A stretch of DNA of 64,000 nt from Verrucomicrobiota bacterium JB022 (GTDB taxonomy: Bacteria; Verrucomicrobiota; Verrucomicrobiia; Opitutales; Oceanipulchritudinaceae): assembly GCA_030673845.1 (NCBI GenBank), contig JAUTCQ010000012.1:307218-371217 (forward strand), read 5' to 3'. Shown one piece after another: positions 21,081-36,186 of the stretch. The number at the start of each line of letters is the position of its first letter. The first letter of the stretch is position 1. The notes under the pieces were generated by a model. That model made no database searches and was not told the origin of the DNA. It saw only the letters and a program-made list of their open reading frames with translations. Both the position numbers and the translations under genes were made by a program.

Positions 21081-23141
21081 ATGCGCCTGAGCTTCCTCAC
21101 CCTGATCGCCGTCTGCGTCAGCCACCTCGGCTGGGGTCAGGGCAGCACGCTCTCGAAGGAAGACCTCGTCAACGCGGTGTGGCACTACCACCTGGAAAGC
21201 GCGTTGGCCGAGCCGGAGAAGGTCTACAAGCTCGACCTTTCGCGGCAGGGGCTGGAAGCCTTCCCGCTGGAAGTGACGGGGCTGCCCAACCTCCGCATCC
21301 TGCTGCTCAACCACAACCGGATCGCAGTGGTGCCGCCGGAGATCGGGCGCCTGCAAAAGCTGGTGGAGCTGGAGCTGAACGACAACGAGCTGGAGGAGCT
21401 GCCGCCCGAGCTGTTTACCATCGGCACGCTCTCAGAGTTGGAGGCCTCGCGCAACCGCATCCGCGAGCTGCCCGCCGCCGTCGCCCAGCTGCACCAGTTG
21501 ACCGAGATCGAGCTGAACGAAAACCGCCTGACGCGTCTGCCCGACGAGGTGGGGCAGCTGACGGAGCTTGAAGAGCTGAAGGTGGCCCGCAACCAGTTGA
21601 CCGAGCTGCCGGCCTCGATCCTCGAACTCGACCAACTAGGCGAACTGGTCGTCGGCTCCAACCAGCTAAGCCACCTGTGGCCCGACATCGACCGCCTACG
21701 CAATCTGCGCGACCTCGACATCTCCAACAACAACCTGCGCGAGCTGCCAGCGGCGCTCTTCGATTTCCACCTCAGCCTGCTCTTTCTCAAGAACAACCCT
21801 TTTGCCCATCCGTTGACGGAAGAGCAGGTGGCCGCCGTGCTCCACGCCGAGGAAAACGACTTCGACGCGGTGATCCTGAGCCTGGCCGAGGCGGGCGACG
21901 CTGTATTGGCGGAGCGTTATCTGGATTTTGCGCAGCGCTATTTCGAGGAACACAAACTGTGGGGCGATCTCGCCGCCGCCTACCTCACGGCAGCCTTCGT
22001 CTACCGCGACCTGGGGCAGCTGGAGCTGGCCGTGGATTACACCAACCGCGCGGAAGCCTTGGCCGAGGAAGTCAATTTCGACTTGTTGACGGCGGACGAC
22101 GACGAGGCCTTTTACGCCAACACGACGGAGATCATCCGCGACGCCCAGAACCTGCAGGAGCTGTTGCACAGCGAACATGAGAAGGCGACCCTGCGCCGCA
22201 ACGTACGCTGGGGCATGATCGCGGGGATGGCCCTGCTGATGGGCTTCTCGGCTTTCGTCTACTGGAGCCGTCGCCGCCTGCAGCGCTACAACCGGGAGCT
22301 GGCCGAGCAGCGCAGACAAATCGCCGAACAGGCCGAGGCGCTGGAGCTGGCAAACGATCATCTGACCGCGCGACAGGGCGAGATTTTGGCGCAAAACGAG
22401 CGGATCGAGGCCCAGGCAGCGGATCTGCGCCGCCTCAACGCGACCAAGGACCGCATCTTTTCCATCGTGGGACATGATTTGCGCAACCCGCTTTATGCGA
22501 TCGAAAGCGTGGCCGAGCTGATCGAAGACGAACAGGGCTTTTGCGAGCCGCAGGAGCAGCAACGCCGCGCCCAAGTGATCCAACGCAGCGCGCAGGAGGC
22601 GTCCCAACTGCTCCACAACCTGCTCGACTGGGCGCGTACCCAGACCAACGACATCCCCTACCGTCCGGGTTTCGTCCAGCCGGGGGTTTTGGTCGATAGC
22701 ACGCTCGACCTGCTGCTGCCTTCCATCCAGCGCAAGCGGCTGCTGATCGACTCGCGGATCGCACCGCATACGGTCGTTTATGCCGACCCGCACATGCTGC
22801 AGACGGTTTTTCGAAACCTGATTGGCAATGCCATCAAGTTCAGCCATGAAGGTGGCCGCATCAGTGTGTGCGAGCGCCAGAGCGAGTCGTGGCACGAGTT
22901 CGAGATCGCCGACGAAGGAGTCGGCATGGAACAGGGAGTGGCCAAGGGACTGCTGCGGCAGACCCGGATCCACTCGGCCACCGGCACCCGGGGAGAAAAA
23001 GGAAGCGGGCTGGGCCTGCTCATCTGCCGCGAGTTCATTGCCCGCAACGAGGGAATGCTGGAGATCGATAGTGCCCCGCAGCAAGGAACGCGCTTCGTCG
23101 TCCGCCTGCCCCTGGTCGGCCTTGCGTTAGCGGTACGTTAG
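21081..23141 (+). CDS. Sensor histidine kinase with N-terminal leucine-rich-repeat (LRR) and TPR-like sensor region
   Basis: Signal/TM, then about 8 LRRs (LxxLxLxxNxLxxLPxxI, e.g. 'LPNLRILLLNHNRIAVVPPEIGRLQKLVELELNDNELEELP'). A helical TPR-like region, a TM and a coiled coil follow. HisKA 'FSIVGHDLRNPLYAI'. HATPase_c 'GNAIKFSHEGGRISV…DEGVGMEQ…GSGLGLLICREF'. Confidence 0.85.
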   Translation: MRLSFLTLIAVCVSHLGWGQGSTLSKEDLVNAVWHYHLESALAEPEKVYKLDLSRQGLEAFPLEVTGLPNLRILLLNHNRIAVVPPEIGRLQKLVELELNDNELEELPPELFTIGTLSELEASRNRIRELPAAVAQLHQLTEIELNENRLTRLPDEVGQLTELEELKVARNQLTELPASILELDQLGELVVGSNQLSHLWPDIDRLRNLRDLDISNNNLRELPAALFDFHLSLLFLKNNPFAHPLTEEQVAAVLHAEENDFDAVILSLAEAGDAVLAERYLDFAQRYFEEHKLWGDLAAAYLTAAFVYRDLGQLELAVDYTNRAEALAEEVNFDLLTADDDEAFYANTTEIIRDAQNLQELLHSEHEKATLRRNVRWGMIAGMALLMGFSAFVYWSRRRLQRYNRELAEQRRQIAEQAEALELANDHLTARQGEILAQNERIEAQAADLRRLNATKDRIFSIVGHDLRNPLYAIESVAELIEDEQGFCEPQEQQRRAQVIQRSAQEASQLLHNLLDWARTQTNDIPYRPGFVQPGVLVDSTLDLLLPSIQRKRLLIDSRIAPHTVVYADPHMLQTVFRNLIGNAIKFSHEGGRISVCERQSESWHEFEIADEGVGMEQGVAKGLLRQTRIHSATGTRGEKGSGLGLLICREFIARNEGMLEIDSAPQQGTRFVVRLPLVGLALAVR

Positions 23142-23269: not shown

Positions 23270-25384
23270 ATGCGCAAGAGCTTGCTTCATCATTCCGTCA
23301 AAGATCCGCTCATTATGGCCGGAATCGTCCTGGCGGCTGCGCTCTTTGGCATCTTTACGCGCCAGATCGGTTTTTTGGCCGCCTTCTGGCCCGCCAATGC
23401 CCTGCTGATCGGGTTGATGATCCGCACGCCTCGTTACGCGGCGCTACCCAACTGGGTCGCAGCCTTCGTGGCCCTCGTTGCCGCCGACGTGCTGGCGGGT
23501 ACCACTTGGCATCTGACCCTGTGGCTGACGAGTGCCAATATGGTGGCAATCTTCACCGGGTACCTGCTGCTGATGCGCATGAACGAGGCCGATCGCCAGT
23601 TGCGACGCCCCCTTTCCGTGCTCTACCTCTTCGCAGCCTGCACCATCTACTCGATCGCCGCCGCGACGGTAGGCGCTGGCACTGCGCCCGTTTATTTCGA
23701 TAAACCTTACTGGGCCGGCTTCGGATTCTGGTCTACCGCCGAGTTGGTCAACGCCGTCATCGTCCTGCCGATGCTGCTGACCTTCCCAACCGGTGCGGCT
23801 CTATGCGAGAAGTTGCGGGAGATGGGGAAGCTGCGCTGGGCCAAAAGGTTGGCTCCGGCAGCGGCCCTCCTCGCGTCCCTCTTCCTCGCGGTGCTGATAG
23901 ACGGCCCGGGCTCGATGGCCTTTCCTGTGCCCGCCCTGCTCTGGTGCGCGCTCAGCTACAGCCTTTTCTCCACCGCTACCCTTACAACGGCCCTCTGCAG
24001 CGGCATGATGGTAGCCATCGCTACCCAGTTCATCGCCATACCGCTCGGCGAAGATCCGATGGCGGCCATGGCCTCGGTGCGTCTCGGCCTCGTGCTCATG
24101 GCCCTCGCGCCTCTGACGGTGGCAAGCGTCAGCCTCGTCCAACGCGAACTGCTGGAGGCCGAGCGCTTGCATGGCGAGAAGCTGGAGAAGGCGAAGGAAA
24201 CGGCGGAAGCGGCCCAACAGGCCAAGAGCAACTTTCTCGCGATCATGAGCCATGAGATCCGCACGCCCATGAACGGCATCATTGGACTCACCGATCTGCT
24301 CAACCGCACTTCGCTGGACGCGGAGCAGGCTGACATGGGTCGCCTGATCAAGCACAGCTCCGAAAACCTGCTGACGATCCTCAACGACATTCTCGACTTT
24401 TCCAAGATCGAGGCCGGCAAGCTGGAGATCACGCCGGAGAGATTCGAGCTCGCCCCCTTGGTCGAAGATGTTGCGGCCCTGCTCGCTCCGGCCGCAGACA
24501 AGAAGGGCCTCGCGCTGAATCTGGAGATCGACCCCGCCCTCAGCGAGCCTTTGTGGGGCGATGCCGGGCGGATTCGGCAGGTGTTGACCAACCTGGTGGG
24601 CAACGCGCTGAAATTTACCACGCAGGGTAGCGTCACGATTGTCGCACGCGAGCTGGAGCACTCCGACTGCAGCGTGACATTTCGCATGGCCGTGCGTGAC
24701 ACGGGGATTGGCATTGCCCAGGCAGCCCAGGCCCAGCTTTTCCAGCCCTTCACGCAAGTCCATGACGCCCCGGCCCGCAAGTTTGGCGGCACCGGGCTCG
24801 GCTTGTCGATCTGCCAACAACTGATCCACCTGATGGGCGGCCAGATCGGCCTGTCCAGCGAGTCGGGCCGGGGCTCGGAATTCTGGTTTACCCTCACCCT
24901 GCAGCGCAACGGCCAAGAGGGAAACAAGCGTCATCCCCGGCCCAGCGCCCCTACCCCAGGCCTGAACCCTGTTCAGCGTTCCCTGGATTTGTTGGTGGCC
25001 GACGACAACGCCGTCAACCAGACCGTCATTCGCCGCCTGCTTGCCTCGATGGGGCACCGGGTAGAGATCGTGAGCGACGGGCAGGAAGCACTCGATCGCC
25101 TGGCCCAGCAGCCTTTCGACGCGGTATTGATGGATTGCCAGATGCCGGGCGTCGACGGCTACGAGGCCACGCGGCGGATTCGTTCCGGATCCTTGCCAGG
25201 CGTCGATGCGAACGTTTGCGTGATAGCCCTGACCGCTTCGGCCATGTCTGAAGCGCGGGACGCGTGCCTTTCCGCCGGGATGGACGACTTCGTCAGCAAG
25301 CCCATCCGCCCCGAGGAGATGCACGCCGCCCTGCAACGCGTTTGCAAGGCCGGTGAAGACGCGACGCAGGAGCCGACCGCGTAG
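23270..25384 (+). CDS. Hybrid sensor histidine kinase / response regulator with MASE1-like polytopic membrane sensor domain
   Basis: About 300 aa of multi-TM N-terminus. HisKA '[18 protein letters not shown]'. HATPase_c ([10 protein letters not shown]…DTGIGI…[13 protein letters not shown]). C-terminal REC domain ([13 protein letters not shown]…[18 protein letters not shown]). Confidence 0.9.
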
Positions 25385-25389
25385 CGCAT

Positions 25390-28300
25390 CTAGTCGTCAT
25401 GCGCCTGGCTTTCCGGGAGCGGGTCGAGCCCGATCCGCAGGAAGAGGCGGTTGAAGGCGCGCAGAAGGGTGCGCAGTTGCCATTTGATATCGTCGGATAG
25501 CTCGATGTGGTGGGTTAAGGCCGTGTTTTCGGGTGCGGCCGAAGGGGTGAGATGCTGGAGCTGAGCGTCGAGTCGGCGCAGAGGCTCGACCACAGTCTCG
25601 GCAAGCTGCCCCAGCGAGGCGGAAAACTCCGGCGGCAGGTGCAGCGTTGCAGGCGTGGCGGGGCGTTGTGCGGCCTCGGCCAAAGGCGCGAGCGAACGCC
25701 CCACCTGCCCTTGCAGCGCGGCCAGGGACTGCGTGAGCGTGGTCAGATCTTGGCGGAGCGCGCCCAGGCTGTCGGGGGTAAGGGCGAGCGGCGGCAGCGG
25801 GCGCTCCAGTAGCTGGGCCACTTGCGCCTGCCCTTGCCCGAACTGGGCCAAATGGGTTGATACTTCCGCGCGGAAGGCAGGGTCGAGCATCACCGGCTGG
25901 CCCTGCTGGCCCACCGCCGTCTCCAGCTGGCTGGAAATCTTGCCGACGCCTTGGGTCAGGTCGTGCACTGCGCCGACCACGCGGTCGACGGGGTCCTGAT
26001 CCTTCGCACCCATCACGGAGTTGCGCACGTAGCGTTCCTTGACGAGGGCCCAGCGCGCCTGTTCCTGCTCGGTCAAGAGGCCCTCCATCTCACGGAACTT
26101 CAGGAGATTCGACTCCGCCCCGGTGGTGAGGGTCTGGGCTTCGCCCACGTAGTGCTGCAAGACGAGCGCATCCACCTCGCCCGGCGTCATGAGCGGCAAC
26201 ACCTTTTCCGCCATCCGGTTCATGTTGCGGTAGGAGCCCTGGAGCTTGAAGGGCGGCTCGGTGCGGTAGTTGTCTGCCGTGGCGGCGCTGCGGATATACT
26301 CGAGGTTGACGCGCAGGACGGTGTCGCGCACGCGCATCAGGTGACGCGTGACGGTGACCATCTCGTTGACCTCTTCCATCGAATAGTTGCCGACAAAGTC
26401 GACGCCTTCATGGCTGCCCGTCTCCGCGATGCGCATGACGGCGTAGACGTCTTCGCGTGCCTTGCCTGCGAGCGTGCTGAGCGCAGGATTGGAAGTGAGG
26501 CAGTTTTCGAGGTAGCTGGCCTCGAAGGCGGTGCGGTTTTGCTGCACCATGTCGCCCAGGTTGTAGGTGTCGGCGCGGTTGGCCAACATGTCGGGGATCT
26601 GGAAGCGCCCCCCCGTCTCGGTGTAAGGGTTGCCGGCCATAACGACGGCCACCTTCTTGCCGCGCAAGTCGTAGGTACGCGCCACGCCGTTGTAGACGCC
26701 CTCGATCTTGCGCTGCCCGTCGCAGAGCGAGATGAACTTCTGCAGCAGCTCCGGGTTGGTGTGCTGGATGTCGTCGAGGTAGATCATCACGTTGTCGCCC
26801 ATCTCGAAAGCGAGATTCAGCTTGTTGACCTCCTCGCGGGCGCTCGCGTTGCGGGCTTCGCTGGGGTCGAGGCTGGTGACGTCGTGCCCGATGGCCGGGC
26901 CGTTGACCTTGACGAAGGTGATGCCGAGGCGGTTGGCGACATACTCCATCAGGGTCGTCTTGCCGTAGCCGGGCGGCGAGATGAGCAGCAGCATGCCCAT
27001 GCGGTCGGTGCGGGTGTTCTCGCCGGCGGTGCCGATCTGCTTGGCCAGGTTGTCGCCAATGAGGGGCAGGAAGACTTCGTCGAGCAAGCGGTTACGCACA
27101 AAGGCGCTCATCACCTGCGGCTTGAACTCGTCGAGCCTCAGCTTTACGCGCAGGGTCTCGACCAGCTCGTGCTTGCGGCGGTCGAAGGCCAGCCACTGGG
27201 GCATGGTATCGCCCTCGAAGCGGCGGAGCTTGCGCAGGAAGTGGTTGTAATGCAGGTGGTAGCGACGGCCCTCGCCCAGCACCGGGTGATCGCCCCGCAA
27301 GCCTTCCAGGTCGCGCTCCAGCGGCACTTCGACGACCTGGCTCGGCTGAATTCCGCCGCGCAGGAGGTGGGCCGCCGTCTCGTCCACGTATTCCAGCTCA
27401 CGCTCGTTCAGGCCTTGGGCAAGGCCGTAGCCGAGCAGCCAGTCGCGGATCACTTCAAATTCGGCGGCGGGTTGCCCCTTCATGCGCTCGCGGGCCTCCT
27501 CGAAGGCGTTGAGGTAGCGCTGCGCCACCAGCTCCACGCGGAAGCGCTCGGCGAGCTGCGCGGCTTCGCGGCTGACCGTCAGGCTGTCGGGCGTCACCAG
27601 CTCGGTAAACAGATAACGCGCGGCCTCCGGGGCGAGTGCGGCCGGGAACAGCGCGGTGCGTTCGCAAAACTCCTCCACCGCCCGCTCGATCTCGCGGATG
27701 TAGCCGGCCTGCGTCTGGTGCTGCGGGAAGAGCCGCCGCATGGTGGCAAAGGAATCGAGCCTCTGGCTGAGCAACTGGCGCTGTTCGCTGCCTGCATACT
27801 GCTCCCAGAAGACGAGGGCGCAGGCGCGGGTCGCCGTGTCGTAGCGCAGCAGGCCGACCACGGCGTGGATCTCCACCAGTGCATCGAGCAGCAGGCGGGC
27901 GTCGAGGTCGTGCAGGCCCTTGGAGTAGCCTTCGCGGTAGCGCGGGCCCATGAACCGTTGGATCCAGGCCAGGCGGGCTTCGGGCGTGGCGGCGAGGTAA
28001 CCCGGCAGGTCAAGCCCGTCCCCACCCTGCTCCAGTGCCTGCAGTGCCGCGTAGGCGAGGAATTCGGCGCGGTAGACGGTGTCGCTCTCGCTCGGCAGCT
28101 CCATGTCCCACACCGGGCGGAGAGCGTTCAACTCCTCATCCACGATACGCTGGAAAAACTGGGTGCCGGTGAGGTGGTAGTAGAAGTCGCCCTCGCGCCG
28201 GACCGTCGTGAGGTTCAGCTCTTGCTGGTTGACGGTGAACTTGTGGCGGCCGAACTGCAGGAGGTTGGTGCCGTCGACGAAGAGCTCCTGCCGGTCCTTG

Positions 28301-30822
28301 AGCTGGCGCACGGCATCGCCCTGGGCGGTCTTGAGGCGGGTGGCGAGGTCGTCGCCCTTCAGCGGCTCGCCCAGCTCCTTGAGCTGCCGGATGAGGTTGC
28401 GCACCTTGTCGACCATCAGGTCGCTCGCGAAATAGCCGTTGATCTCGTTGACTTCCTTGAACTGCGCGACGCGGCTGCGGATGCCCTTGAGGATGCGCTC
28501 ACCCGCCGACATCAGCTGCCCGGCCTTCTGGTTGCGTGCTTCCTGCAGGGCCATGCGGCGCGACTGGAAGGCGTTGTAGACTTCCTCCCGCTTGGTCGTG
28601 ATCTGCTCGACGAACTCCGGGAACTCCGCGAACTGGCCCTCCAGCTCTTCGAGCTGCACCATGAGCTTGGTCAGGTATTCCTCGCAACGCTCGGGCGAGT
28701 CGACGATGTCGAGGTAGTTGATGACCGCCTGGTTGAGCAGCTTGAGCTGGGCGTTGAACTGCGCCACGCCCTCCGTCCGCATCATGTCGCGACGGCGGTT
28801 GCGCAGCTCCACCTTCAGTTGGTTCAGGTCGGCGTAGATCGCGGAAATGCGGTCGATGATGGCGGTAGCCTGGGTGGCGTCGTCGATCTTGAGGTTGTTG
28901 ACGATGTCGATCAACAGCTCTAACTGCGCCCCCGTCTCGTCGCAAGCGGCCTCGACTTCCTTGAGGATGGCGACGGTATCGGCCTCGCGCCCCGCTTTGG
29001 CATGTTCGGCCAGTGCGGCGGCATAGGGCGCAAGCGCAGCCTCGCTGAGCAGGAAAGTGACGGTCTGTTGCGCAACCCGAGCGGACAGCTCGCTAAGGGA
29101 GGTTTCGAGCTGGTCGACTGCCGGGAGATCGACGTAGCGCAGCTCCCGCAGGCCGATGATCTCGCCCCGCAACTGGCGCAGGCGGGCGAGGTGGGCCACA
29201 TAGCCGCGAATGTCATCCGGCGGCGTGCCTCCGGCCTCGGTCAGGGCCTTGCGCGTGGCCTGGCTCACGGCGTCCATGCGCGCCTGGGTGGCCTTGCGGA
29301 TGCGCTGCACCTTCTCGAACTCATCGATGGCGGCCTGCCCGGTGGCATGTACGGCGGCGAGGGTCGTTTTCAGGTCCACCGCCTCGGGTCGGTCGAGCCA
29401 GTAATGCAGGTCGATCACCTTCTGGCTGAGCCGCACAAGGTCGACGTACAGGCCTTCGTAGCTGTCTTCGCGCGCGATGAGCAACGAGATTTCGCGCAGG
29501 GCGGAGAGGCAGCGCACGATCTCGGCGTTGCCCACCTTGAAGAGGAAGTTGTCGGCTTGCCCAGCCACCACCTGCTGCTCTTTGGAGAAAGGCGTTTGCC
29601 AGATCTGCAGGGCGTGCGCCTGGGTCGGCTCTTCGTTGGCCTTGAAGTAAACCAGCTCGCCGTTGGAGAAGAGCGTGAAGCCTTGGCAGACGATGGGCGC
29701 CTCCACGCTCTGCTCGATCAAATTGTAGCGCATGAGCACATACGTGCCGCTGCGGCGCTCGTAGAACACATAGAGGTAGTCTTCGCCGTTGGGCGCCTTG
29801 ACGACGCGCTCGAAATACATCTGCTGCAGCTCGCCGGGGAAGAGCTTGTATTCGCCGTTGTGCAGGTAATAGCCGTTGGCGAAGATCACGCCCTGATCTT
29901 CCGGCAGCAGCACGCAAGACTGCTCAATGGCGTCGACCCGGCGCACCTCCTTCACCTTTTCGTTGTAGATGAAGTGGCGGGCCTGCTTCTCCTGATAAGG
30001 CTTGATCTTGAGCAGGATGAGGCTGCCGAGAATCGCGTAATGATACTCGGCGTCGTCGAGCGTCTGATCCTTTTCCTGCACGGGCTCGGCGTAGATGCCC
30101 TGCCCGTCTTCGGTGTTGTCCTCGATCTTGATCGTGAGGTCGCCCCCCACCGCTTCCACAAACAGACGGTCTTCAATCGAGATGTGGGGGTGCGGACCGC
30201 CGCGCTGCATATCGCGATGGGCGCGGGTCCACTTGAACTGGTGCTGCTCCGGGAACTGGTATTCGTGCTCGAAACGGTTGCCCTCGTAGCGCAGCACGTC
30301 ACCGTCGATCAGCCACTTGAAGACCTTGATGTCGCGCAGGTCGTCGCTGATGCGGAAGGCCATGTAGAGGAAGGCCCCAATGACCATGAACTTTACGAAG
30401 ACGGCCTTGCGGTAGTAACGGTAGAGATACGCAAAGTCGTCCTGAAACTCCTGCGAGGCCAGGATCTCCTCCAGCGGCAGCGGGTGGAAACTGCGGTCGG
30501 CCCGGTCGTAGCGGAAGGCGGCCAGCACATCCGTGGGCGTCACGGTCGAGCGCAGGCCCATCTGCACGTTGTAGCCAAAGAGGAAGCGGTCTCCCGAGAG
30601 CGACACCATGCCGCGCGCCACGCAGTTGTAATCCGTGGTGATGCGCTGTGTGGCCAGCAGCTCGGGCTCGACCACGCCAAAGACGCCTTGGCGGGCGGTA
30701 TTGAGCTGCTGGATCTTGCCCTGCAGCTCCGCGCCTTGCTGGCGCAGCCGCTGGCGGATGACCTCGTAGGCACCGCCTTCGAGCTTCGAGGCGGGCGCGG
30801 GGGTGGCGGGGACCGACGACAT
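25390..30822 (-). CDS. Giant (1810 aa) uncharacterised protein with a single C-proximal AAA+ ATPase module; third gene of the NfeD-flotillin operon
   Basis: The ORF is uninterrupted. It has a beta-rich N-terminal ~450 aa, a ~700 aa helical/coiled-coil middle, and an AAA+ core at ~aa 1280 (Walker A 'ISPPGYGKTT', DNA ~26953-26979; Walker B 'VMIYLDD'; sensor-1 'VVMAGNPY'). The C-terminal tail is Q/A/L-rich and low-complexity. It has no signal peptide and I recognise no protease or nuclease motif. It lies 104 nt downstream of flotillin on the same strand. Confidence 0.8.
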   Translation of the reverse strand: MSSVPATPAPASKLEGGAYEVIRQRLRQQGAELQGKIQQLNTARQGVFGVVEPELLATQRITTDYNCVARGMVSLSGDRFLFGYNVQMGLRSTVTPTDVLAAFRYDRADRSFHPLPLEEILASQEFQDDFAYLYRYYRKAVFVKFMVIGAFLYMAFRISDDLRDIKVFKWLIDGDVLRYEGNRFEHEYQFPEQHQFKWTRAHRDMQRGGPHPHISIEDRLFVEAVGGDLTIKIEDNTEDGQGIYAEPVQEKDQTLDDAEYHYAILGSLILLKIKPYQEKQARHFIYNEKVKEVRRVDAIEQSCVLLPEDQGVIFANGYYLHNGEYKLFPGELQQMYFERVVKAPNGEDYLYVFYERRSGTYVLMRYNLIEQSVEAPIVCQGFTLFSNGELVYFKANEEPTQAHALQIWQTPFSKEQQVVAGQADNFLFKVGNAEIVRCLSALREISLLIAREDSYEGLYVDLVRLSQKVIDLHYWLDRPEAVDLKTTLAAVHATGQAAIDEFEKVQRIRKATQARMDAVSQATRKALTEAGGTPPDDIRGYVAHLARLRQLRGEIIGLRELRYVDLPAVDQLETSLSELSARVAQQTVTFLLSEAALAPYAAALAEHAKAGREADTVAILKEVEAACDETGAQLELLIDIVNNLKIDDATQATAIIDRISAIYADLNQLKVELRNRRRDMMRTEGVAQFNAQLKLLNQAVINYLDIVDSPERCEEYLTKLMVQLEELEGQFAEFPEFVEQITTKREEVYNAFQSRRMALQEARNQKAGQLMSAGERILKGIRSRVAQFKEVNEINGYFASDLMVDKVRNLIRQLKELGEPLKGDDLATRLKTAQGDAVRQLKDRQELFVDGTNLLQFGRHKFTVNQQELNLTTVRREGDFYYHLTGTQFFQRIVDEELNALRPVWDMELPSESDTVYRAEFLAYAALQALEQGGDGLDLPGYLAATPEARLAWIQRFMGPRYREGYSKGLHDLDARLLLDALVEIHAVVGLLRYDTATRACALVFWEQYAGSEQRQLLSQRLDSFATMRRLFPQHQTQAGYIREIERAVEEFCERTALFPAALAPEAARYLFTELVTPDSLTVSREAAQLAERFRVELVAQRYLNAFEEARERMKGQPAAEFEVIRDWLLGYGLAQGLNERELEYVDETAAHLLRGGIQPSQVVEVPLERDLEGLRGDHPVLGEGRRYHLHYNHFLRKLRRFEGDTMPQWLAFDRRKHELVETLRVKLRLDEFKPQVMSAFVRNRLLDEVFLPLIGDNLAKQIGTAGENTRTDRMGMLLLISPPGYGKTTLMEYVANRLGITFVKVNGPAIGHDVTSLDPSEARNASAREEVNKLNLAFEMGDNVMIYLDDIQHTNPELLQKFISLCDGQRKIEGVYNGVARTYDLRGKKVAVVMAGNPYTETGGRFQIPDMLANRADTYNLGDMVQQNRTAFEASYLENCLTSNPALSTLAGKAREDVYAVMRIAETGSHEGVDFVGNYSMEEVNEMVTVTRHLMRVRDTVLRVNLEYIRSAATADNYRTEPPFKLQGSYRNMNRMAEKVLPLMTPGEVDALVLQHYVGEAQTLTTGAESNLLKFREMEGLLTEQEQARWALVKERYVRNSVMGAKDQDPVDRVVGAVHDLTQGVGKISSQLETAVGQQGQPVMLDPAFRAEVSTHLAQFGQGQAQVAQLLERPLPPLALTPDSLGALRQDLTTLTQSLAALQGQVGRSLAPLAEAAQRPATPATLHLPPEFSASLGQLAETVVEPLRRLDAQLQHLTPSAAPENTALTHHIELSDDIKWQLRTLLRAFNRLFLRIGLDPLPESQAHDD

Positions 30823-30926
30823 AGGGGAATCGATGGGAACGAATGCGAACGCAAGTAACGAAGAGAGAGAAGGGACGCGCCCGGCGGCGCATCCACTTCA
30901 GCCCCTTCCTCTGGCCCGGCTCGGGC

Positions 30927-33074
30927 TTAGTTCTTTTGCGTCAACGTGGGGTTGAGGGCCAGCAGATCGCGCACAAACATCTGGCCGTAAGGCGACTTGT
31001 CGGCGATGCCGATATACTCCTGGATCTTGGCCAGCAGGCTCTGGTCGTTGCCTGCGAGGCCGGCCAGCTTGGCCAAGAGGGCGCTCAGCGTGAGGTTGCG
31101 GACGTCTTCGGTGCGCAGGCCCAGCTTGTTGACCCATTGGGTGACGTTGGCGCGGAACTGCTCCGGCCCGCCGTCGAAGAAGGTCTCCTTGACGTCGAGC
31201 AGGTGCTCGGAGCTGTTGATCGTGCGGTCGACCGACTTGCCGCGCGTGACGGCGCCGACGATGCGGTCGTAGAAGTCGGTGCTGCCGCCCACGATGTCGA
31301 CGCGGGTGTTCTTGAGCGCCTCGGCCAAAACGGCGGCCTGGTGCTCGGCAATGCGTTCGTTGACTTCGATGGAAGCCAGCTCGATCTCCTTGTCCTTCTG
31401 CAGGCGCAGCTTGAACTCTTCGTGTTCGCGGCCCACGCCGTCGAAGATCTTCATCGCCTCGGCCTTTTCCTTGATACCGGTGGCATCGGCGAGGTAGCGC
31501 AGCTCGTCGCTCTTGGCGAGCGATTCGCCTTCCTTCAGCTTGGCGGCGGCCATGGCTTCGAGCACTTGGGCTTCGCCCAGGCCAGCGGCGGCGGTCTCGG
31601 CCGTCTTGGCGGAGGCGAGGTTTTTCTTGGCTTCGGCGGTGCGCTGGCTGGCGCTTTCTTCGGCTTCGGCGGTCACGACGAGCTCCTGCGCCTTCAGCTC
31701 GGCCGAGCGCTTGCTGGCCTCGGCGGCACGGACTTGGGTGAGGAAGAGCTCTTCGGCCTTCATCACTTCGGCGTCCTTGCTCGCTTCGGCGGCCTTGAGC
31801 TGGGCGATGAGCTTTTCCTGCGCTTCCTGCTCGGCCTTGGTGATGGCGACTTGCTTGGCGCGGTCGGCCCCGGCAAAGGCTTCGGTGTCCTTGATCTTTT
31901 CCTGCTCGATCACGACGGTCTTCTCGACCATCACGCGGTCCTTGATCACCTCCTGGATGTTGCGCTTTTCGACTTCCACGGCTTTTTCGCGCTCGATGTC
32001 GGCCAGTTGGGTCACTTTCTGGCGCTCGACCACTTCCAGATCGCGGTCGCGCTGGACGCGCTCGGTCTCAATGGCATCGGTACGCTGCTTGTTCTTTTGC
32101 GCGATGATGATCTGGCGATCCTTGTTCTCGGTCGCGATGGCCAACTCTTCCTCGGTGGCGATGCGGGCCTGCTCGTGGCGGAGGCGCTGCTCTTCGGCCA
32201 CGCGCTTCGATTCGGCCTCTTCGCGGCTGCGGATGACGGAGATTTCGCGCTTCTGCTTTTCCTCGGCTTCGGCTTGTTGCTTCTCCAGCTCAAGCACGGC
32301 TTCGCGCGCCTCAACGTTTTGCTTGGTGATGGTCTTGACGCGGTCCTGATCGATCTGGTTGGCGAGGATCTTTTCGCGCGAGGTGCGGTCGGTGATCTTC
32401 TTGATGCCTTCGGCGTCGAGGATGTTGTTGGGGTTGAGGTGTTCGAGCCCCGTCTGCTCCAGATAGTCGATGGCGGCGTCTTCGAGCACGTAGCCGTTCA
32501 AGTCCGTCCCGATCACCTTGATGATCTCATCGCGGAACTTGTTACGCTCGGTGTAAAGCTCTTCGAAGTGGAACTGCTTGCCCACCGTCTTGAGTGCCTC
32601 GGAGAACTTGGCGTCGAAGAGCTCGCGGATGCCTTCGATACTGCTGGCGCGTTCGCAACCGATGGAGGTGGCGACGTTCTTTACATCGGCCTCGTTATCG
32701 TTGATGCGCACGAAGAAATCGACCGCGATGTCGGCCCGCATGTTGTCCTTGCAGATGAGGCCTTCCGAACCGCGGCGCTCGACCGTGACCCGGCGCACCG
32801 TGATGTCCATCTTCTCCAGCTTGTGGACGACGGGCAGCACGATCATGCCGGTAAACGAGACCTTGGTGCCGCCCGCGCCGTTGCGGATCAGCGCCTTGCC
32901 CTGCTCCACCTTCTGGTAGGCGGAGGTGACGAAAAAGACGACGGCCACCAGGATAAAGAGCAGGATCCCGATGGTAATGAGGGTCAGGTCGCCAAGGATA
33001 CCACCGCCTCGGCTGGCAGTGGCTTCGGCATCGGCAGCGGCTTGCGCGAGGATAGGAAGCAGGACAGGGTGCAT
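30927..33074 (-). CDS. Flotillin-family SPFH protein (YqiK/FloT-like)
   Basis: N-terminal TM (ITIGILLFILVAVVFFV) and an SPFH core. A long E/A/K-rich coiled coil with 'AEAEEKQ…' repeats follows, then a flotillin-type C-terminus. It lies 34 nt downstream of the NfeD-like gene. Confidence 0.85.
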   Translation of the reverse strand: MHPVLLPILAQAAADAEATASRGGGILGDLTLITIGILLFILVAVVFFVTSAYQKVEQGKALIRNGAGGTKVSFTGMIVLPVVHKLEKMDITVRRVTVERRGSEGLICKDNMRADIAVDFFVRINDNEADVKNVATSIGCERASSIEGIRELFDAKFSEALKTVGKQFHFEELYTERNKFRDEIIKVIGTDLNGYVLEDAAIDYLEQTGLEHLNPNNILDAEGIKKITDRTSREKILANQIDQDRVKTITKQNVEAREAVLELEKQQAEAEEKQKREISVIRSREEAESKRVAEEQRLRHEQARIATEEELAIATENKDRQIIIAQKNKQRTDAIETERVQRDRDLEVVERQKVTQLADIEREKAVEVEKRNIQEVIKDRVMVEKTVVIEQEKIKDTEAFAGADRAKQVAITKAEQEAQEKLIAQLKAAEASKDAEVMKAEELFLTQVRAAEASKRSAELKAQELVVTAEAEESASQRTAEAKKNLASAKTAETAAAGLGEAQVLEAMAAAKLKEGESLAKSDELRYLADATGIKEKAEAMKIFDGVGREHEEFKLRLQKDKEIELASIEVNERIAEHQAAVLAEALKNTRVDIVGGSTDFYDRIVGAVTRGKSVDRTINSSEHLLDVKETFFDGGPEQFRANVTQWVNKLGLRTEDVRNLTLSALLAKLAGLAGNDQSLLAKIQEYIGIADKSPYGQMFVRDLLALNPTLTQKN

Positions 33075-33108
33075 GGTTTGGATAAGTTGGAAGTCTTGAA
33101 ATTTATGG

Positions 33109-33768
33109 TTAGGAACGAAGCTGTTCGTCGAGCGTTTCTTTGGGGAAGTAGCCTTCCCAGGGTTGGACGTAGTAGAGCAGGCGCTTGTCGTCGCCCTCGA
33201 TGATGAGCGCCTCGTCGCCGCGCTTCAGCGGTGCGCTGCCGGGCACGAGGCGGATCTGCAGGATCTTTTCCCGCCCGTCCCACTTCACGAGGCCTTGGCC
33301 GAAGCTGTCGGTGACTTCCCCGGTGCGCACGGTGCAGATCTTGCCGACCATCGGCTCGTGGACCGTGCCCTCGATCGCCAGTTGGCGCAGCCACGGGCGC
33401 AAGGGGCGCATGGCGGCCTTGGTGAGGAAGAGGCTTACCAGCACGCTGCCGCCCATGTAGACGAAGCCCATTACCAGCCCCAACGCGTGATTGAAGTAAT
33501 AGTTCGTCAGCATGGAGAGGAACCATGCGAAGGTGATGCAGATGCTGCCAAAGAGACTCAGCGGGACTACGTCGAGGTCGAAATACTTGTAGAGGGTCTT
33601 GAAAAAGCCGCCCCCCAGGCTGATGTCGGCATCCACGTCGCCCCCAAAGTCGAGGTCGAAATCGAAGATCCCGAGCAGCGTCACGAGCCAATACAGCAGC
33701 ACGAGCCCCAACAGGATCGTCAGGGGCAGGTTATACCAGGCAAGGGCTTCTCGGATGATTTCGGGCAT
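33109..33768 (-). CDS. NfeD/YqiJ-like membrane protein with C-terminal OB-fold
   Basis: 219 aa. It has three or four TM helices followed by a short beta-rich soluble domain ('GKICTVRTGEVTDSFGQGLVKWDGREKILQIRLVPGSAPLKRGDEALIIEG'). This arrangement and the position immediately upstream of flotillin are typical of the YqiJ/NfeD–YqiK module. Confidence 0.7.
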   Translation of the reverse strand: MPEIIREALAWYNLPLTILLGLVLLYWLVTLLGIFDFDLDFGGDVDADISLGGGFFKTLYKYFDLDVVPLSLFGSICITFAWFLSMLTNYYFNHALGLVMGFVYMGGSVLVSLFLTKAAMRPLRPWLRQLAIEGTVHEPMVGKICTVRTGEVTDSFGQGLVKWDGREKILQIRLVPGSAPLKRGDEALIIEGDDKRLLYYVQPWEGYFPKETLDEQLRS

Positions 33769-33942
33769 CGTCAGGACAGGTTGGATTATAGGATCGGCAG
33801 CGAGATCGGGCCATTATAAAAACCCTCACGGATTGGAAGGCAGGCCCCCAAACTGTCCCTTCCACCGGCGGAAGACCAGCGCAGAATCGCGCTGCGTGCC
33901 TGCATCGCGGGATGTCTCCAGTGCGGGAGCGGTTCTGGACGC

Positions 33943-33975
33943 AAAAAAGGCACCGGCAGATAAACTGCAGGTGCC
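33943..33975 (-). terminator. Rho-independent terminator for the CBM/beta-helix gene (GGCACC…GGTGCC stem with U-tract on minus strand)
   Basis: The + strand reads AAAAAA-GGCACCGGCAG-ataaa-CTGCAGGTGCC. On the minus-strand transcript the hairpin is followed by UUUUUU. It lies about 50 nt downstream of the stop at 34025. Confidence 0.7.
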
Positions 33976-34024
33976 GTTGGCGATGGTCGTGCGGACCGTT
34001 TGGGGTGTCGCTCCGAAGGCCGGA

Positions 34025-36103
34025 TCAGGGAACCCAGACGGGAGGGTTGGCGCCCCCGCTGAGGTTTTGATTGTTGGAGGCGTTGAGCGTCACTTGCCCT
34101 TGGGCACCGACATAGATCGTGCTGCCCACCTGATTGTCTTCCACCACGGCGGTCACGTTGGGCTGCGGATGGTAGATGTCGATCCCGGCGGCACCACAGC
34201 CGAGGATGTAGTTGTCGCGGACGTTGATGGTTTGCCCGGCGGTGAGCACGCGGCGATACATGATACCGGTCTTGGTGCTCCGGCCCGTGGTGTTGGTCCA
34301 GGTAATGCGGTTGTTCTCGATCGTCGTATCACCGGCGGCGACCTTGACGTTGATCGCGGTAGCCGGATCTGTCATCGCGAGGGTGAAGTTCAGCTCGTTG
34401 CCGGTAATCGTGGGGCCGGGGACGGAGGTGCCCATGCCGCGGTGCGAAATGTCGATCACCGCGTTGGTGAACGTGTTGTTGCGAATGGTAATATTGCCCG
34501 GGCCCTTGAAATCGTCGACCGACGAGAGACCGGCGTAGCTGATGAAGACGTTGTCTTCGAGCACCACGTCCTGCACATTGCTCGCGACGTAAGAGCTGTT
34601 ATACATGCGGTAGAGCGGGTAGCCCTCGATATTGCTCGTCACGAGGTTGCGGCGGAAGACCATGTTCTTCGTGCCGTAGAAGTTGGCGATGGCGCCGTTG
34701 AGGCCGTCACTCGCGATGTTGTCTTGCGCCACGCTGTCGAAGCAGCCTTCGAAATCGAGCGAGATGTCGTCGGAGCGGTGGGTGTTGTTGAACTCGGCCG
34801 TGATATACTGGCCCATGCTGATGAAGATGCCGGCATTGACCATGTCGTTGGCGACGTTGCCGGCGATGTAGAATCGGCGGGCCCAACGCGGATTCGTCAT
34901 CGCGCCGTTGTTGTTCGGGCCGGTGCCGAAGGAAGCGTTGCCACCCCACACCCCGATGCCGGTGCCGTAGAAGCTCAGGTTGTTCTTGTAGATCTCACTG
35001 TCGATCGTATAGCGGAAGCGGATGCAGGCCTGCTCTTCCACGATGCCATTGACGTTCGGCCCGATCCCAGTGCAAAAGGCGACCCGGATGTTGGCCGAGA
35101 GCTGGTCTTCGGACGTGATGTCGGCATAGGTCGACTTGTGGGTGGTGACGAAGATCAGGTTACCCGGGTCGGCCGTGCAGTGGCGCATGAGGACGTTTTT
35201 GGCCGTCTTGTAGTGCGCAATGTATTTGGAGGGGTTGTAAGACGAGGGGATCACGCCACCGATGACCTTGAAGGCCGTGTACTCGTTGTCGCCCATAAAG
35301 GTGGTGTCGTTGCCAAACGCGCGGAAAATGCTGTTGCCGTCGGCCACCTGGTTGAAGATTGTGCTGTCGCCCGCGCCCTGGATAATGGCCCCTTTGGGCA
35401 TCGTGATGATGCCGCTCACGCGGTAGGTACCGGGCGGGAAGTAGAGGAACTTGTGCGTATTGAGGGCCGCGCCGATGGCGGTGGTGACATCGGTATTGTT
35501 GCCGGGAATACCGAGGGTGCTGACGTCCTTGCGCTGGTATTCCGTCAGGTAGACATCGTCGATCCAGAGCGAGCCGGTGGTCGAGTGGAGCGTGACGCCC
35601 ACCACGAGCGAAGTCTGGTCGGCGGTGAAGGAGCACTCGAACAGCTGCCAATCGAAGTTGCCCGTCGGCAGGGCCGTGGTGGCCTGCGAAGCCCCTTGGA
35701 TCACGAAGTTGGTGCCCGCACCCACAGACTGGCCCTTGGCCCAGACGTAGGCGTAATAAGTCTTGCCGACCGTGAGGCCGGAGACGGTCTGCTTGACTTG
35801 CTTGTAGACGCCCGGCTGCTGGGAGCCGGTGTAGGTCATCTTGACGCTTTGCTCTTCCCAGTGGAACTGGGTGGCGTCGGTCGCCACGGTGGCAGTGGGA
35901 GCCCCGGCCTGCCCGATGACCCAGTTATTGCTGCCGCCGAGCGGCGCTTCGAAGCTACTGTTCTGGAGCAGGTTCTGCGCGTGAGAGACCACCGGGGCCA
36001 GCCCGAGGGCGGAAGCCAGGCAGAGGGCAAAGGTGCGTAGAGGTGAAACACGTGGGCGGTGAGAGACAGGCCGCACGGATTGAGGTTTTGTGGGTAGGTT
36101 CAT
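34025..36103 (-). CDS. Secreted carbohydrate-active protein: N-terminal CBM4/9-like module plus right-handed beta-helix (Pectate_lyase_3 / GH28-related) domain
   Basis: The signal peptide (…LRTFALCLASALGLAPVVSHA) is followed by 'QNLLQNSSFE…W' (CBM_4_9-like). The beta-helix region has 'TDVTTAIGAALNTHKFLYFPPGTYRVSG' and many Asn-rich coils. The longest ORF would start 11 codons upstream at 36136. Confidence 0.65.
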   Translation of the reverse strand: MNLPTKPQSVRPVSHRPRVSPLRTFALCLASALGLAPVVSHAQNLLQNSSFEAPLGGSNNWVIGQAGAPTATVATDATQFHWEEQSVKMTYTGSQQPGVYKQVKQTVSGLTVGKTYYAYVWAKGQSVGAGTNFVIQGASQATTALPTGNFDWQLFECSFTADQTSLVVGVTLHSTTGSLWIDDVYLTEYQRKDVSTLGIPGNNTDVTTAIGAALNTHKFLYFPPGTYRVSGIITMPKGAIIQGAGDSTIFNQVADGNSIFRAFGNDTTFMGDNEYTAFKVIGGVIPSSYNPSKYIAHYKTAKNVLMRHCTADPGNLIFVTTHKSTYADITSEDQLSANIRVAFCTGIGPNVNGIVEEQACIRFRYTIDSEIYKNNLSFYGTGIGVWGGNASFGTGPNNNGAMTNPRWARRFYIAGNVANDMVNAGIFISMGQYITAEFNNTHRSDDISLDFEGCFDSVAQDNIASDGLNGAIANFYGTKNMVFRRNLVTSNIEGYPLYRMYNSSYVASNVQDVVLEDNVFISYAGLSSVDDFKGPGNITIRNNTFTNAVIDISHRGMGTSVPGPTITGNELNFTLAMTDPATAINVKVAAGDTTIENNRITWTNTTGRSTKTGIMYRRVLTAGQTINVRDNYILGCGAAGIDIYHPQPNVTAVVEDNQVGSTIYVGAQGQVTLNASNNQNLSGGANPPVWVP

Positions 36104-36186
36104 GTTTTTCGGGGGGTATAAGAAGTGGTGAGACATTCGGCCTCACCAACGAGAAAATGCGTCCGCAGCCTGGGCGGAAAAGGGGC

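Follow-up and report, generated by a model that had tools for sequence, protein, structure and literature searches.

Three co-directional genes on the minus strand of Verrucomicrobiota bacterium JB022 (contig JAUTCQ010000012.1, positions 307,218 to 371,217, a stretch of 64,000 nucleotides (nt) hereafter called the window) encode a small membrane protein resembling YqiJ, a flotillin and a giant soluble ATPase. An earlier note on this DNA had proposed that they form an operon, and its account of the layout agrees throughout with the open reading frame (ORF) map. The YqiJ-like and flotillin genes are separated by 34 nt and the flotillin and giant genes by 104 nt, a gap of 256 nt lies upstream, and a convergent gene for a protein of 704 amino acids (aa) stops at 25384, 5 bases from the stop codon of the giant gene. 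We found that this three-gene arrangement, the triad, recurs in other genomes far beyond chance and that it belongs to a class of operon related to the phage-shock system. The coordinates of the genes, domains and RNA signals are collected in the table.

Features of the triad and its surroundings in the window
Feature	Coordinates	Strand	Basis
YqiJ-like inner-membrane protein, 219 aa	33109..33768	minus	ORF and translation
Flotillin-type SPFH scaffold protein, 715 aa	30927..33074	minus	ORF and translation
Giant soluble ATPase, DUF3686-DUF7902-AAA family, 1810 aa	25390..30822	minus	ORF and Pfam
DUF3686 region of the giant, aa 32-474	29401..30729	minus	Pfam, AlphaFold2 (AF2) model, Foldseek
DUF7902, aa 596-678, in the helical middle region of the giant (roughly aa 420-1230, ~750 residues)	28789..29037	minus	Pfam, AF2 model, conservation profile
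AAA+ module and lid of the giant, aa 1231-1620	25963..27132	minus	Pfam, AF2 model, alignments
C-terminal tail of the giant, aa 1621-1810, L/A/Q/P-rich, weakly conserved	25393..25962	minus	conservation, composition
Terminator-like hairpin and U-run after the 703-aa beta-helix gene	33943..33975	minus	sequence, fold
Strong RNA structure within the spacer (104 nt) between flotillin and giant genes, pyrimidine-rich 3' flank, listed as terminator-like	30857..30911	minus	fold

The three proteins

The giant protein, which the earlier note could place in no named family, carries the Pfam families DUF3686 (PF12458), DUF7902 (PF25472) and AAA (PF00004, aa 1278-1398). The first of these matched over its entire profile (positions 1-448 of 448) with 582.3 bits against a cutoff of 25 (E = 6.8e-175), and the other two scored 88.2 bits against a cutoff of 26 and 34.2 bits against 21.2, respectively. 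Its homologues share both this set of families, with DUF7902 and a single C-terminal AAA+ module, and its length (~1.6-1.9 thousand residues). Identity between phyla is 43-58% over ~1,600 residues, a degree of conservation that points to a constrained cellular machine. Across 120 homologues the conserved core spans aa 1-1620; the tail is not conserved, with conservation values of 0.09-0.46 and gaps of up to 81%. Hydropathy analysis revealed no transmembrane (TM) segment in the giant, and the Pfam scan detected no peptidase or protease domain, nor any DNA-binding or nuclease domain. The family is thus a named one, albeit uncharacterized.

An AF2 model of aa 1-500 (predicted local distance difference test score (pLDDT) 87.4, predicted template modelling score 0.86) consists of a helix at aa 18-48, then 27-28 strands that form a beta domain (aa 54-409), and helices from aa 426 onwards, in keeping with the beta-rich N terminus and helical region described in the earlier note. 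The top Foldseek matches of this model were all beta-propellers, among them Sec12, Elp1, DCAF1 and sialidases. The N-terminal region is therefore modelled as a beta-propeller, probably of about seven blades judging from the strand count. A profile of the propeller region retrieved 915 representatives (E ≤ 0.001) among 1.84 billion; among the matches listed, the non-fragments were 1.6-2.0 thousand residues long, so that in these the propeller sits inside the giant architecture.

The AAA+ module contains Walker A (SPPGYGK1288T, rather than the GPPGYGKT of the earlier note), Walker B (IYLD1350D1351) and sensor-1 (N1398, within AGNPY), the latter two having been read correctly before, as had the composition of the tail. 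R1416 is a candidate arginine finger and R1532 a candidate sensor-2 residue; these two, K1288, D1350-D1351 and N1398 are all invariant in the homologue alignment. In a structure model of aa 1195-1640 (pLDDT 75) the AAA+ core has a beta-hairpin that falls after helix 3 and before the strand carrying sensor-1. Sequence matches in the PDB to Cdc48, VAT and Rix7 span the N-terminal half of the module only. The modelled fold appears closest to the MoxR ATPases NorQ and CbbQ and is not FtsH-like, although our assignment of the clade is tentative.

In the flotillin an N-terminal TM segment (aa 23-57, the only one by hydropathy) is followed by SPFH/Band_7 (aa 55-197), by a long coiled coil rich in E, A and K, and by a C-terminal region. 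Full-length flotillin produced no match in Pfam (even at E = 10), NCBIfam or PADLOC scans, probably because of coiled-coil bias filtering. Once the coiled coil was removed, the fragment aa 1-267 matched Band_7 with 40.9 bits against a cutoff of 23.6 (E = 2.9e-10). A PDB sequence search gave no matches. In BLASTP the protein was 30% identical to Escherichia coli YqiK over 441 aa (E = 2e-45), and its identity to the giant-linked SPFH proteins of plasmid pQBR103, Proteus and one further sampled locus (L086) was 39-46%. The Proteus giant-linked flotillin is 43% identical to that of the window and only 29% identical to E. coli YqiK. Giant-linked flotillins from different phyla thus resemble one another more than they resemble YqiK, which argues that the flotillin travelling with the giant is a separate paralogous subfamily and not the orthologue of E. 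coli YqiK. They are also longer, at about 600-730 aa compared with 553 aa for YqiK. We considered the last ~100 aa of the window flotillin as a giant-specific docking domain; this was rejected as a general explanation, the segment being absent from the flotillins of pQBR103 and L086.

The YqiJ-like protein matched no Pfam family at E ≤ 10, and hence neither YqiJ_N nor NfeD, and full-length NCBIfam and PADLOC scans returned nothing. Among 23 homologues, YqiJ_N was reached in five (best E = 7.8e-5) and NfeD in one, and several sources label homologues as DUF1449/YqiJ. A profile of these 23 proteins aligned with E. coli YqiJ over 183 columns with a probability of 94.8% (hhalign, E = 4.9e-8), and an hhalign comparison with the product of the equivalent pQBR103 gene gave 99.9%. 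Hydropathy analysis gave three hydrophobic segments (aa 7-40, 65-88 and 95-116), and the C-terminal domain of ~90 aa is beta-rich and may be NfeD/YuaF-like. A PDB sequence search with the profile placed YuaF (2k14) at the correct position for a C-terminal oligonucleotide/oligosaccharide-binding fold, with a non-significant E of 0.43. These profile comparisons make the protein, with its three predicted TM segments, a distant homologue of YqiJ and, together with the Band_7 and YqiK matches, bear out the YqiJ-flotillin pairing proposed in the earlier note. The linker between the first and second TM segments (aa 36-60) is rich in aspartate; its length varies but its acidic character is kept in 23/23 homologues. 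Its probable location under the positive-inside rule is the cytoplasm, and we speculate that it might bind cations or polyamines, since polyamine genes occur in related Psp operons.

Conservation and surroundings of the triad

A profile built on the giant was run against a single genome from each species, and the 80 best loci, at 43-58% identity, were retained. Represented among them are Verrucomicrobiota, Planctomycetota, Bacteroidota, Desulfobacterota, Clostridia, Kiritimatiellota and Omnitrophota, and 64 of the loci are informative in having at least 2.6 kb of upstream DNA. The giant gene is directly preceded, on the same strand, by a flotillin homologue in 61/64 informative loci, and because the same order recurs so regularly in other genomes the arrangement is far beyond chance. 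A YqiJ-like gene was found by tblastn ahead of the flotillin in 48 of 57 loci, a count that ORF clustering raises. The most divergent full-length giant homologue sampled retains all three genes, and annotated records with the triad include Pseudomonas fluorescens pQBR103, megaplasmids of Streptomyces and Deinococcus, and Proteus mirabilis. The triad stays intact across ten or more phyla of bacteria and is inherited as a unit composed of two membrane proteins (the three-TM YqiJ-like protein and the flotillin) and one soluble giant. Homologues of the giant are common, with more than 5,000 clusters, and almost always linked to flotillin, the opposite of the loose linkage by which the earlier note said its idea would fail; the proposal in the earlier note that an AAA+ protein without a protease domain forms a conserved unit with the YqiJ-flotillin pair is upheld by this linkage and by the Pfam scan. 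E. coli K-12 has no comparable giant gene downstream of yqiK, and the Proteus gene, compared at the DNA level with 5,426 E. coli genomes, found no match there.

None of the genes flanking the triad in the window is kept beside it in other loci. Downstream, the convergent gene (23270-25384) encodes a hybrid histidine kinase and is adjoined by a plus-strand gene (21081-23141) for a 686-aa histidine kinase whose sensor contains leucine-rich repeats, followed by HisKA and HATPase_c. Upstream, a minus-strand gene (34025-36136) encodes a 703-aa right-handed beta-helix protein that is pectate-lyase-like. The terminator-like hairpin after this gene lies in a 61-nt stretch (33930-33990) with a folding energy of -20.5 kcal/mol (z -3.1), which suggests that the triad may have a transcription start of its own within the 256-nt gap. 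The structure in the flotillin-giant spacer, held in a 77-nt stretch (30850-30926), is stronger at -42.7 kcal/mol (z -3.2; values for the window locus only). As a possible attenuator or processing site, it could lower the dosage of the ATPase relative to the scaffold.

Elsewhere, additional genes accompany the triad. Small, selfish-looking nuclease-like genes stand directly upstream of the giant gene, of the PDDEXK_3/GxxExxY type in L002, L004 and L019 and of the DUF559 type in L034, L040 and L043. Where the locus has a flotillin they lie between it and the giant (L034 has none), and their presence accounts for the long spacers at some loci. A Phage_CP76/CII-like regulator of ~160 aa is found near the start of the triad in L001, L013, L027 and L046 (Verrucomicrobiota and Kiritimatiellota); the 256-nt gap in the window is too small for an equivalent. 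In three Bacteroidota loci (L036, L068 and L072) the giant gene is followed by three co-directional genes for proteins of ~182, 242-278 and 287-292 aa (families 21-23), which may reflect lineage synteny.

Relation to phage-shock operons and other known systems

A PspA_IM30 gene adjoins the triad in 17 Bacteroidota loci. In 16 of these it immediately precedes the YqiJ-like gene, and in the other (L031) it is found downstream, on the opposite strand. CesT_Tir_1 is present in 15 of the same 17 loci, and a divergently transcribed regulator family of helix-turn-helix (HTH)/S24-like type occurs in 15 loci, upstream of the CesT/PspA-triad genes where shown. On pQBR103, an environmental megaplasmid (L082, 85.4-97.6 kb), genes for PspA, rhomboid, DUF2491, DUF350, DUF1190 and glutathionylspermidine synthase form an operon to whose end the triad is joined. 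An MvaT/MvaU-family gene stands just downstream of the triad on this plasmid, and a literature search on pQBR103 with PspA gave nothing useful.

The earlier note had regarded the system as undescribed. Ravi et al. 2024 (mSystems, PMC11237479) however describe this gene set as a relative of the phage-shock system, occurring in a form with a CesT/Tir-PspA dyad and in an abbreviated form without PspA, and arrive at the same prediction from context as we do. Their operon, exemplified by the IS97_2772 neighbourhood of Dokdonia donghaensis, has the same three proteins, order and domain architectures as the window: a flotillin with an SPFH domain, a three-TM protein of the YqiJ/YuaF type, and an ATPase combining a beta-propeller, a coiled coil and AAA+. 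The CesT/Tir-PspA dyad of the full form is lacking in the window, where neither PspA (tblastn and hidden Markov model searches) nor CesT (tblastn) was detected in 64 kb, and the window triad is therefore an abbreviated operon of the Ravi et al. class (PMC11237479). The full form, with its divergent HTH and protease regulator, is seen again in our loci from Bacteroidota. The operon had thus already been described computationally; that description (PMC11237479) is computational only and gives neither the clade of the ATPase nor linkage statistics. What we add is the 61/64 linkage count, the distinct flotillin subfamily, the MoxR-like assignment and the evidence bearing on the family's name.

Comparison with better known systems shows what is shared and what is particular to the triad. 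In E. coli YqiJ-YqiK and Bacillus subtilis YuaF(NfeD2)-YuaG(FloT), as in the triad, a three-TM gene of the YqiJ/NfeD type lies immediately upstream of a flotillin with a TM segment, SPFH domain and coiled coil; unlike the triad, the E. coli pair has no giant ATPase downstream. In HflK/C-FtsH, cited as a precedent in the earlier note, an SPFH scaffold is likewise found with an AAA+ machine at the inner membrane, and there the two are functionally coupled. FtsH however is anchored in the membrane, contains an M41 protease and is a member of the classical AAA clade, none of which holds for the giant, so that with a fold nearest NorQ and CbbQ the precedent is a loose one. MoxR remodellers (NorQ-NorD, CbbQ-CbbO and RavA-ViaA) are proteins of ~250-500 aa that work with a separate VWA/MIDAS adaptor. 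In the giant, by contrast, a propeller and a helical arm of 750 aa share one chain with AAA+, and Walker B ends in DD; no VWA/MIDAS family recurs among the neighbours in the 80 loci or in the annotated contexts. The same idea of an AAA+ ATPase genetically coupled to a polymer from the ESCRT-III superfamily, PspA being a member, and to membrane remodelling is seen in Vps4-ESCRT-III of archaea and eukaryotes.

Possible roles of the giant ATPase

Bacterial flotillins and PspA make large membrane-bound assemblies and, to our knowledge, no ATPase has been shown to drive the assembly or disassembly of either. We consider it somewhat more probable than not (roughly 55%) that the window holds the abbreviated, PspA-less form of a conserved membrane module that travels with the phage-shock (PspA/IM30) system, and that the giant is an ATP-driven remodeller or adaptor of flotillin assemblies, and of PspA assemblies where they occur, at the inner membrane face. 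The flotillin, aided by the YqiJ-like protein, would build an oligomeric scaffold or cage at the cytoplasmic face of the inner membrane, onto which the giant would dock by means of its propeller and long helical arm. It would oligomerize through its MoxR-like AAA+ module and, at the cost of ATP, put together, take apart or reshape the flotillin scaffold (with PspA where present) or clients held by it. The adaptor function, which in MoxR systems falls to a separate VWA protein, would be built into the giant's own chain, and in the living cell the module would serve to maintain the membrane or to repair envelope stress.

Several observations weigh against this proposal. Flotillin is missing at 3/64 informative loci (L012, L023 and L048), where the upstream genes are unrelated and no alternative SPFH or NfeD pair is present at the locus. 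PspA is absent from the window itself. The Walker B motif ends in D-D instead of D-E, which may mean slow hydrolysis and so a switch rather than a motor, and the strong hairpin in the flotillin-giant spacer may limit co-transcription of the ATPase with its proposed scaffold. Moreover, a literature search found no experiment on the giant protein.

A bolder version, which is possible but which we hold tentatively and would not favour in a wager, sees in the giant DUF3686 ATPase the missing source of energy for the dynamics of bacterial membrane scaffolds. Its dedicated task would be the ATP-driven remodelling of flotillin cages and, where linked, of PspA/ESCRT-III polymers, which would make it a functional analogue of Vps4 of independent origin, derived from MoxR proteins and with a propeller as its own adaptor. 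According to a 2025 review, bacteria appear to lack a Vps4-like ATPase. The same parts could instead serve client handling, as raised in the earlier note, where the flotillin cage would corral membrane or sub-membrane proteins for an AAA+ ring to extract, unfold or insert, as a protease-free counterpart of HflK/C-FtsH. The conserved pairing of SPFH and AAA+ proteins would fit such a role, as would the propeller, a typical platform for binding clients or adaptors, and the fact that MoxR-type relatives work on specific client complexes. The giant however has neither a protease domain nor a membrane anchor, its fold is not FtsH-like, and no conserved candidate client gene lies nearby except for PspA/CesT in some lineages, which leads us to think this role unlikely. 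Decidedly less attractive is a nucleotide-dependent tether or switch, in which a slow DD ATPase would stably link patches of flotillin to another cytoplasmic structure. The invariance of D-D in place of D-E and the very great length of the helical arm (~750 aa) speak for it, but sensor-1 and the candidate arginine finger and sensor-2 residues are invariant as well, as in a working ATPase, and the nearest structural relatives are active remodellers.

The earlier note had also raised a role in defence. In such a role the scaffold and its large ATPase would sense infection and trigger abortive infection at the level of the membrane. The ATPase is indeed large and uncharacterized, copies are carried by some megaplasmids (pQBR103, Streptomyces and Deinococcus), and a CII-like or XRE/S24 regulator lies upstream at some loci. 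Against PADLOC-DB v2, however, the giant produced weak matches only (E = 5.5e-4 to 1.3e-3), to LmuB over a helical stretch of 253 aa and to mad8 and IetA in the P-loop region, which amount to no system signature, and the YqiJ-like protein and the flotillin had no match at all. No phage copies were found, the flanks are ordinary metabolic and signalling genes rather than defence islands, and the unusually high conservation between phyla and the fixed architecture are unlike those of fast-evolving defence genes. We consequently regard this explanation as very improbable.

We give least credence of all to the view that the giant is the DNA-repair ATPase of its database name and merely adjoins membrane genes. 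Pfam titles DUF3686 'ATPase involved in DNA repair', the identical protein of Verrucomicrobiota bacterium JB022 is a 'DNA repair ATPase' at NCBI, the sequence gave weak matches to RuvB_N, and RuvB was the top Foldseek match. Yet the conserved partners are all membrane proteins, and domains for DNA binding or cleavage are lacking, as described above. A literature search gave nothing useful for DUF3686, PF12458 or 'DNA repair ATPase' together with flotillin, and hence no paper tying the family or its name to flotillin. We found no support for the name, which we infer to have been transferred on the strength of similarity in coiled-coil or P-loop sequence; the label 'DNA repair ATPase' probably misnames the protein, and its use is spreading through genome annotation.

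The triad couples a highly conserved AAA+ protein of 200 kDa genetically to flotillin in at least ten phyla. Its culturable carriers, among them Proteus mirabilis, Vibrio campbellii, Pseudomonas fluorescens pQBR103, Streptomyces and Flavobacteriia, are candidates for genetics, and the question of what powers the dynamics of flotillin and PspA therefore becomes directly testable.

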